A DNA stretch of 64,000 nt. Source: Eledone cirrhosa. Lineage: Eukaryota. Below, piece by piece: positions 12,672 through 13,315 of the stretch (position 1 is the stretch's first letter; every line of letters starts with the position of its first letter). Where the stretch lies: the NCBI GenBank assembly GCA_964016885.1, contig OZ024747.1:71176001-71240000 (forward strand), read 5' to 3'. The notes under the pieces were generated by a model that saw only the letters and a program-made list of their open reading frames with translations, was not told where the DNA came from and made no database searches. A program made the position numbers and the translations under genes.

Positions 12672-13315
12672 TCATGTATATATGTGTGTGTCCGCATGTA
12701 TCTGTGTGTTTCTAAATATATTGTTAATAACTCCCTCTGGTCGAGCAATCTTTGAAGTGTGGATACAACTGGAAAGCTTCCATTACTCATACTTCTCGCC
12801 TTCTTCACCACCTCTTCTGCGGCCTCGATATGAATACCCCCTCCGCCTCCGTGGTATTTTCTTCGTGGTTATAGGAGGCTTAGCTCTGTTTCTCGACCGT
12901 TATATCGCGTGACTATCTCCCCCGCCGCCTTTTGGGATTCTTTCTCACGTCGTGTAGACGCGTTCTTGAGACTAGTAAAATGAGGTATCCTCTTGATAAG
13001 TCGGCAGACCTCGCAAGGACTCTATATCTTTGATATATTGTTTTTGTTTATGCCACGAAACTACGTAGTCGAGGAATTTAGGAGCAGTTTAGGTATGATA
13101 CATTTTATTACTAATTATATCTAAATGTTTCTTCTCTCTTCATAATGTATTTTTAACTCTGATACTGGTTCAGTCTAGTTCAACTGAATTGGTCTGTCCC
13201 AGTCATTCATTGAGCAACATCGGTGAAGTTGGCACCCTTAACTCACAGTTGGGTGCGGATGCATTCATGTATATATGTGTGTGTCCGCATGTATCTGTGT
13301 GTTTCTAAATATATT
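12672..13315 (+). mobile_element. Non-coding hammerhead-bearing element: 593-bp unit plus 51-bp terminal direct repeat (retrozyme/Penelope pLTR-like)
   Basis: Identical TCATGTATATATGTGTGTGTCCGCATGTATCTGTGTGTTTCTAAATATATT at 12672-12722 and 13265-13315, a central ribozyme, and (TA)n on both sides. Confidence 0.6.
12988..13075 (+). ncRNA. Type I hammerhead ribozyme, U3-A8 core variant with long loop II
   Basis: TCCTC-TTGATAA-GT(C)GGCA...TGCCAC-GAAA-CTACGTAG-TC-GAGGA. Stem I is 5 bp, stem III is palindromic, the triplet is GUC, and C3-G8 is replaced by U3-A8. Confidence 0.75.

Follow-up and report, generated by a model that had tools for sequence, protein, structure and literature searches.

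Insertion anatomy of a 593-nt hammerhead repeat in Eledone cirrhosa: a retrozyme probably copied from a circular RNA monomer by a Penelope-type enzyme

How does a repeat come to be copied for slightly more than one turn, with a ribozyme motif in its middle and the same 51 nt at both ends? The question is raised by a locus in a 64,000-nt stretch of the Eledone cirrhosa genome (GenBank assembly GCA_964016885.1, contig OZ024747.1, positions 71,176,001 to 71,240,000, forward strand), which we refer to as the window and whose numbering we use throughout. The initial annotation had described an exact 51-nt terminal direct repeat with a period of 593 nt and (TA)n outside it, and both are seen again: the repeat (12672-12722 and 13265-13315) cannot be extended on either side, and it is bordered by (TA)5-6 on the left (~12661-12671) and an AT array on the right (13309-13411). 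Our analysis indicates that the 593-nt repeat is very probably a retrozyme without long terminal repeats (non-LTR retrozyme), inserted by a mechanism of the target-primed reverse transcription type. The copy in the window is probably a 5′-truncated member, inserted by the reverse transcriptase (RT)-endonuclease of a co-resident Penelope-like element (PLE) copying what was likely a circular RNA monomer. The case for a circle is made by the paralogues, which show multiturn arms, one haplotype per insertion, and an A>G skew confined to changes present in all copies.

The repeat belongs to a young family with thousands of copies. A 23-mer spanning the predicted cleavage site has 7,458 exact matches in the 3.0-Gb genome (reversed control, 0), and tandem copies with a period of ~588 to 595 nt were found on many contigs. 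We mapped 152 nonredundant insertions, namely, a first set of 89 chosen because they resembled the window copy or for their place on contig 1, a fresh set of 27 picked by position, and 36 picked by identity. Overlapping duplicate loci, L075 to L077 (same junctions as L072), L145 (seen in passing), and L090 (no BLAST hit at threshold) were excluded from the counts. Among the 233 arms in these insertions, 225 have their 3′ end at one of two sites, A (unit positions 45 to 60; 117 arms) or B (unit positions 475 to 484; 108 arms), and (TA)4 lies within 14 nt after the 3′ end in 216 of the 225. The 5′ ends are scattered flat around the unit. Circularly permuted start and end points had been predicted; with 3′ ends at two fixed sites and only 5′ ends scattered, permutation at both ends is ruled out. 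What stands of the proposal that reverse transcription ran around a circular or multimeric RNA is a retrozyme-like unit and a longer-than-unit, likely circular template. L090 (positions 1250 to 1780) is an older relative with 79% identity across 304 nt; its hammerhead has not changed and it has an A-like arm in inverted orientation, and the family therefore has older layers. The window copy is laid out as follows.

12672 to 13315, plus strand: the single insertion of 644 nt, consisting of one 593-nt unit and 51 nt from the preceding turn, with its 3′ end at site A.
12672 to 12722, plus strand: the additional 51 nt at the 5′ side (unit positions 1 to 51), with a TA-like start at the family's commonest 5′ junction.
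12982 to 12992, plus strand: a hairpin, GAGG-TAT-CCTC, that by prediction forms in competition with stem I of the hammerhead and is unchanged in all 14 copies aligned.
12988 to 13075, plus strand: the type I hammerhead (U3-A8 core, palindromic helix III), whose predicted cut falls after 13070.
13071 to 13149, plus strand: a long predicted hairpin that spans the interval between cleavage site and site B.
13131 to 13150, plus strand: site B (unit position 479), the family's second fixed 3′ end, a pyrimidine tract and then ATA, used by 108 of 225 arms.
13151 to 13315, plus strand: the 165-nt "tail" separating sites B and A, with a long predicted hairpin that stops just short of A.
13302 to 13315, plus strand: site A (unit positions 45 to 60), the family's first fixed 3′ end, used by 117 of 225 arms and carrying TTTCTAA.
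13309 to 13411, strand not applicable: the target microsatellite (TA)n at the 3′ end; short (TA)n is also present at ~12661-12671.

The window copy is an A arm of 1.09 turns with G at unit positions 148 and 203. Its unit has 249 G+C among 593 bases (below 50%) and no open reading frame (ORF) of at least 120 amino acids (aa). In the family, the commonest 5′ junction falls at unit positions 1 to 4, with 10 of 225 arms against 1.5 expected, a number inflated by selection of the first set. Since the 5′ end in the window falls in this (TA)n-like junction, we take the 51-mer to be neither a target-site duplication (TSD) nor a designed terminal repeat; the overlap is an accidental product of 5′ truncation. 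A long TSD, as the initial annotation had allowed, or a unit that is the terminal repeat of a coding element would agree with a direct repeat at both ends of this single locus, and retrozyme TSDs longer than 4 bp are reported (PMC7229834). Against this, the 51-mer is element sequence: it lies inside every complete tandem unit, on many contigs, and is common to loci with different flanks. Moreover, no Penelope protein match occurs within 600 nt upstream in any of the 72 single-arm insertions. The TSD reading is thereby refuted, the 51-mer being internal to the unit of a genome-wide family, and the two ideas together retain next to no probability.

A complete hammerhead inside the unit, as annotated, is confirmed as a type I motif, and its cleavage after 13070, corresponding to unit position 399 (399/400 junction), is predicted. 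Read from the sequence, stem I pairs TCCTC (12988-12992) with GAGGA (13071-13075), and the core TTGATAA (12993-12999; UUGAUAA in RNA) has U3-A8 replacing C3-G8. Stem II (13000-13006 with 13051-13056) encloses a long loop 2 and is followed by GAAA (13057-13060), while stem III contains the palindrome ACTACGTAGT (13060-13069) ahead of C17 at 13070. Across 14 aligned copies, the 79% identical relative among them, the motif never changes, and loop 2 varies; the 3′ half of the motif coincides with the search pattern and the 5′ half does not. All three stems appear in the local minimum-energy fold, at a stability no better than that of shuffles (z, −1.2); an Rfam scan gave no hammerhead match at the gathering score, and a short-loop version of the same hammerhead had no matches. 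Because of the fold score and the Rfam result, the call rests on the motif, its invariance, and the published U3-A8 variant. U3-A8 cores with a palindromic helix III have been described in Penelope-associated hammerheads, which are thought to act as dimers (PMC4209133).

Arms extend up to 4,492 nt, or 7.6 units, and together cross the cleavage site 396 times. Divergence is 0.30% between units of one arm and 0.28% between arms of one insertion, compared with 2.9% between insertions. At 29 subfamily-diagnostic sites, 2,701 tests gave 14 discordant results, where drawing units independently would have given ~1,011. The 30 well-covered insertions comprise 27 haplotypes. In 16 insertions, both arms carry the same fixed rare variants, 48 in total, of which a single old copy, L081, accounts for 20; no rare variant was confined to several copies of one arm, and private variants of L109 are present in all of its 7 to 8 copies. 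Near-identical units and arms, concordant diagnostic sites, and rare variants fixed across arms indicate that each insertion descends from one monomer sequence. From these patterns, a covalently closed circular monomer likely served as the template, and the unit folded as a circle has a z score of −6.3. A 3′ end away from the cleavage site is by itself no proof of a circle, because Penelope RT starts internally on RNA (PMC11167929).

Several observations weigh against a cleaved, circular template. The circular minimum-energy fold leaves the hammerhead unformed, and an upstream GAGG, likewise invariant, pairs with the 5′ strand of stem I in it. Metazoan Penelope-type hammerheads are described as poor at cleavage (PMC11167929, PMC4209133), and uncleaved RNA is used by Penelope RT in vitro (PMC11167929). 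Four of 225 arms end at unit positions 399 to 400 against 0.8 expected, a number that 19 two-base windows share; the first set by itself, with 2 arms whose 5′ end is at the cleavage site against 1.5 expected, shows no clear excess. Furthermore, at five sites in four insertions a variant, always a transversion, is present in two but not all copies, and L041 holds one unit of a different haplotype; both would follow from gene conversion between copies or from multimers that now and then served as template.

Two other templates were therefore weighed. In the first, the same element and enzyme would use a linear multimeric transcript, left uncleaved, from a master array of homogeneous tandem units, and the hammerhead would be dispensable. 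Penelope insertion in vitro needs no cleavage (PMC11167929), stops at the cleavage site are few, one haplotype is represented by dozens of near-identical insertions, and the five variants shared by two copies could come from multimers. However, 27 haplotypes in 30 insertions and the private variants of L109 demand repeated monomer bottlenecks, the 5′ ends lack the pile-up found in the Penelope element described below, and editing of a multimer would yield unit-specific A>G, which is at odds with single-unit changes that number 13 A>G and 27 T>C. We consider a linear multimer distinctly unlikely. The second is a cleaved linear monomer, or a nicked circle held by stem I, on which RT would jump from the 5′ end to its own 3′ end at each turn. 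It accounts no less well for the single haplotype within each insertion and for the A>G pattern, and four arms do end at 399 to 400. Template jumps of non-LTR RTs usually gain or lose bases, and yet over 396 crossings, 3,202 of 3,204 base calls at unit positions 396 to 403 equal the family base, leaving just 2 deviant calls; such jumping is a slim prospect. In a separate observation, the unit (window 12723-13264) forms a single self-closing contig of 620 to 621 nt in two of four sequencing runs examined (X4 and X5, which carry other organism labels and whose kind is unrecorded); tandem DNA yields the same.

The mutation spectrum offers a further view of the template. On the hammerhead strand, changes fixed in all copies comprise A>G at 24 sites, T>C at 7, C>T at 8, and G>A at 10 (82 of the 89 first-set insertions). 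A>G accounts for 16 of 43 rare fixed changes and 13 of 216 single-unit changes (p = 3e-7). Events placed on a tree of 93 of the 152 insertions number 46 for A>G, 11 for T>C, 11 for C>T, and 18 for G>A, a per-base A>G/T>C ratio of ~6.8, with recurrent A>G at unit positions 148, 203, 345, 355, 506, and 530. The spectrum tests leave out 7 to 10 insertions that are more than 4% diverged, and the tree leaves out the 59 with less than 65% double cover. The A>G test arose only after the data had been seen; among the fresh insertions alone, A>G makes up 4 of 10 rare fixed changes versus 2 of 29 single-unit changes (p = 0.03). Two points temper this result: A>G versus T>C in the fresh set is 4 versus 3, which is not significant, and the identity-picked set is by design devoid of rare fixed changes. 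Since unit-specific A>G, as from RT error or editing of multimers, is unseen, A>G appears to enter at the monomer stage and to be copied at each turn thereafter. This is the strongest argument for a circle, even if a self-jumping linear monomer fits it too.

A-to-I RNA editing of the template is a probable cause of the skew. ADAR enzymes avoid a 5′ G, and a 5′ G neighbor is found at 1 of 24 A>G sites versus 27 of 109 other A positions. The paired fraction in the fold is 0.67 for A>G sites and 0.61 for other A, no clear effect, and Penelope ORF2 showed no A>G skew, a signal there diluted by later mutation. Alternatively, the skew could stem from strand-biased DNA mutation in transcribed source loci or from selection for G-U pairs, with arrays homogenized as DNA. 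The spectra do not separate out the source loci, which are a minority, and template-level changes include fewer transversions than single-unit changes, so selection acts. However, neither the per-base ratio nor the avoidance of 5′ G fits this explanation well, C>T is not raised even though it is equally tolerated as G-U, and 5 conversion-like events against 216 single-unit changes are insufficient to homogenize arrays. We regard this origin as unlikely but not negligible, and retain editing of a circular monomer.

What fixes the two 3′ ends? More than half of the insertions (80 of 152) consist of two inverted arms joined at their 5′ ends, and 74 of these 80 pair one A arm with one B arm (first set, 41 of 44; later sets, 33 of 36), the other 6 being irregular or cut off; no A+A or B+B insertion was found among the 80. 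Because 35 of 41 A arms extend past B and 23 of 41 B arms extend past A, both arms copy the same stretch of RNA. Correlated arm lengths would point to a pair of RTs working round a single circle; the lengths are uncorrelated (rho, −0.08; n = 41), which lends that arrangement no support. A "tail at only one end" is known from Penelope (PMC8557442). It has been attributed to a protein, by prediction a dimer, that starts reverse transcription at two internal sites and extends both strands (PMC11167929). The A+B rule of the family is this one-ended tail, here 165 nt long. The earlier suggestion of a PLE pseudo-LTR with its tail thus holds in its tail logic, but it is the 165-nt segment from B to A, not the 51-mer, that forms the tail. 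The family shows the PLE-type traits of 5′ truncation, an inverted 5′ arm, a one-ended tail, and a (TA)n target; the tail departs from the 30 to 40 bp typical of PLEs both in the unit (165 nt) and in the local PLE (68 nt).

A search of the genome for GIY-YIG domains returned 10,594 candidates, among them a young family (L150) with a 4,979-nt unit encoding RT, a CX4CxxC linker, and GIY-YIG. By the linker motif given in PMC8557442, it would be a Penelope of the Neptune/Nematis type. Its repeat carries a hammerhead with the core UUGAAAA (U3-A8; 11,632 exact matches), and the element has two 3′ ends in (TA)n, A′ and B′, that lie 68 nt apart. B′ follows the cleavage site by 82 nt in this element, compared with 80 nt for B in the unit. 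Both the unit and the 4,979-nt element contain a single TTTCTAA, located at A and A′, respectively. Inverted Penelope copies are A′+B′ in 14 of 17 cases by hand count, the remaining 3 being irregular, and an open 775-aa frame is kept in many copies. On these features, the L150 family fairly probably drives insertion of the unit. It stays a candidate because only motifs are common to both and many other GIY-YIG families are present in the genome. Pairwise alignment of the unit with the Penelope repeat gave no alignable homology, which counts against the partnership, and comparison with 50 PLE loci, a partial sample of the other families, gave nothing beyond simple repeats and one nested unit copy.

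The Penelope arms themselves differ from those of the unit. Among 35 arms listed by hand, with 5 longer ones omitted, 20 end between −225 and −210, a pile-up that would be expected from the 5′ end of a linear RNA, whereas unit arms have no such stop. Across L173 to L199, half of the Penelope arms end ~220 nt before A′, 70 nt upstream of the hammerhead cleavage site. The stop is likely the transcript start, yielding thousands of tiny inverted insertions from uncleaved RNA. In L208 (368 to 3834; also in L207, L210, and L211), the Penelope family has two overlapping ORFs of 409 and 775 aa from stop to stop, and their overlap contains a U-UUU-UUA slippery heptamer that predicts a −1 frameshift; a frameshifted ORF1 is mentioned for PLEs (PMC8557442). 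At L082 (2300 to 2440), a unit arm directly abuts a Penelope B′ end with no (TA)n between them, which could be a template switch between two RNAs or a nested insertion.

How might these parts work together? The hammerhead would cleave transcripts of tandem copies at unit 399/400, and the ends of the monomer would join to make a structured 593-nt circle, which may occasionally undergo A-to-I editing. A (TA)n tract is cut, by the putative Penelope enzyme, and cDNA begins inside the RNA at A or B; where both DNA ends prime, A serves one and B the other on a shared template, and the outcome is a pair of inverted arms that meet at their 5′ ends. As the pattern of ends shows, synthesis continues for 0.1 to 7.6 turns, passes the cleavage junction, and ends anywhere, often with joining at TA-like microhomology. 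For the window copy, it started at A and stopped after 1.09 turns. Whether all of this holds at once, with a dimeric Penelope RT-endonuclease priming both (TA)n ends at A and B and rolling round the circle in both arms, and with host A-to-I editing as the chief origin of the family's heritable variation, we put at somewhat short of an even chance.

As far as sequence allows a class to be assigned, the unit belongs to the known metazoan non-LTR retrozymes: tandem units each carry a type I hammerhead, they are noncoding and without LTR structure, and an autonomous hammerhead-bearing PLE is co-resident. Members of that class as described (PMC7229834; 10.64898/2026.07.22.740005) share the type I hammerhead per unit, the G+C content below 50%, the circle-structured fold, and coexistence with PLEs. 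At 593 nt, the unit lies above the range of 170 to 400 nt given in PMC7229834 and inside that of 51 to 972 nt in 10.64898/2026.07.22.740005; besides its length, it is set apart by its PLE-type U3-A8 core, young dispersed (TA)n insertions, two fixed 3′ ends, and inverted two-arm form. A PLE that performs reverse transcription in rolling-circle fashion had already been proposed (PMC7229834, PMC4209133), as had a monomer template for metazoan retrozymes; here, insertion anatomy and mutation spectrum provide genomic evidence for such a template. With Neptune/Nematis PLEs (PMC8557442, PMC11167929, PMC4209133), the family shares 5′ truncation, the inverted 5′ arm, the one-ended tail, two internal RT start sites, an AT-rich or (TA)n target, a hammerhead upstream of the starts, and U3-A8. 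Unlike PLEs, it has no ORF, a longer tail (165 nt versus 30 to 40 nt in PLEs and 68 nt in the local one), many turns of one short unit, strict A+B pairing by count, and an A>G skew missing from ORF2 of the local PLE. An autonomous PLE or its solo pseudo-LTR was rejected as an identity on the absence of upstream PLE protein (0 of 72) and of alignable homology to the PLE repeat.

Nonautonomous Chlamys elements such as MRC1 (PMC8557442) are likewise PLE dependent and multicopy head to tail, but they share 3′ sequence with their autonomous family and belong to a clade without canonical hammerheads, while the unit has a hammerhead and only motifs in common with its candidate partner. Plant LTR retrozymes (PMC7229834; 10.64898/2026.07.22.740005) are also noncoding hammerhead retroelements with circular RNA, which for the unit is a likely feature only; their type III hammerhead within LTRs, primer-binding site and polypurine tract, 4-bp TSD, and Gypsy partner have no counterpart here, and the type I topology and tandem units rule this class out. 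Our search, which did not extend to supplements or most subscription papers, found no report of an A>G imprint in retrozyme copies or of a counted A+B rule.

Movement of animal retrozymes through copying of circular RNA by Penelope enzymes was proposed in 2014 and 2020 and is still treated as an open matter in 10.64898/2026.07.22.740005. The present family supplies countable genomic evidence, with one edited monomer per insertion, at most 7.6 turns, and no RNA end, and it turns the one-ended Penelope tail into a strict two-site rule. With a candidate partner named whose ORFs are intact, an existing in vitro assay could put the model to the test. Should the A>G skew reflect editing, RNA edits have been fixed in the genome via retrotransposition; if circle and editing both hold, the thousands of copies would be a germline fossil record of circular-RNA retrotransposition.

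Further insertions lie nearby in the window. A short inverted two-arm element between (TA)n tracts (11856-12058), one arm of which is ~80 nt longer, matches 40 fetched loci and is likely the 3′ end of a further Penelope-type family. Two more short repeats lie between (TA)n tracts (12152-12301 and 12360-12410), the second matching 37 fetched loci; the microsatellites of this part of the window are nests of TA-targeted insertions. On the minus strand at 47445-50318 is a non-LTR retrotransposon, presumably L1/Tx1-like, with a 724-aa RT frame (Pfam RVT_1) and endonuclease-like frames upstream.
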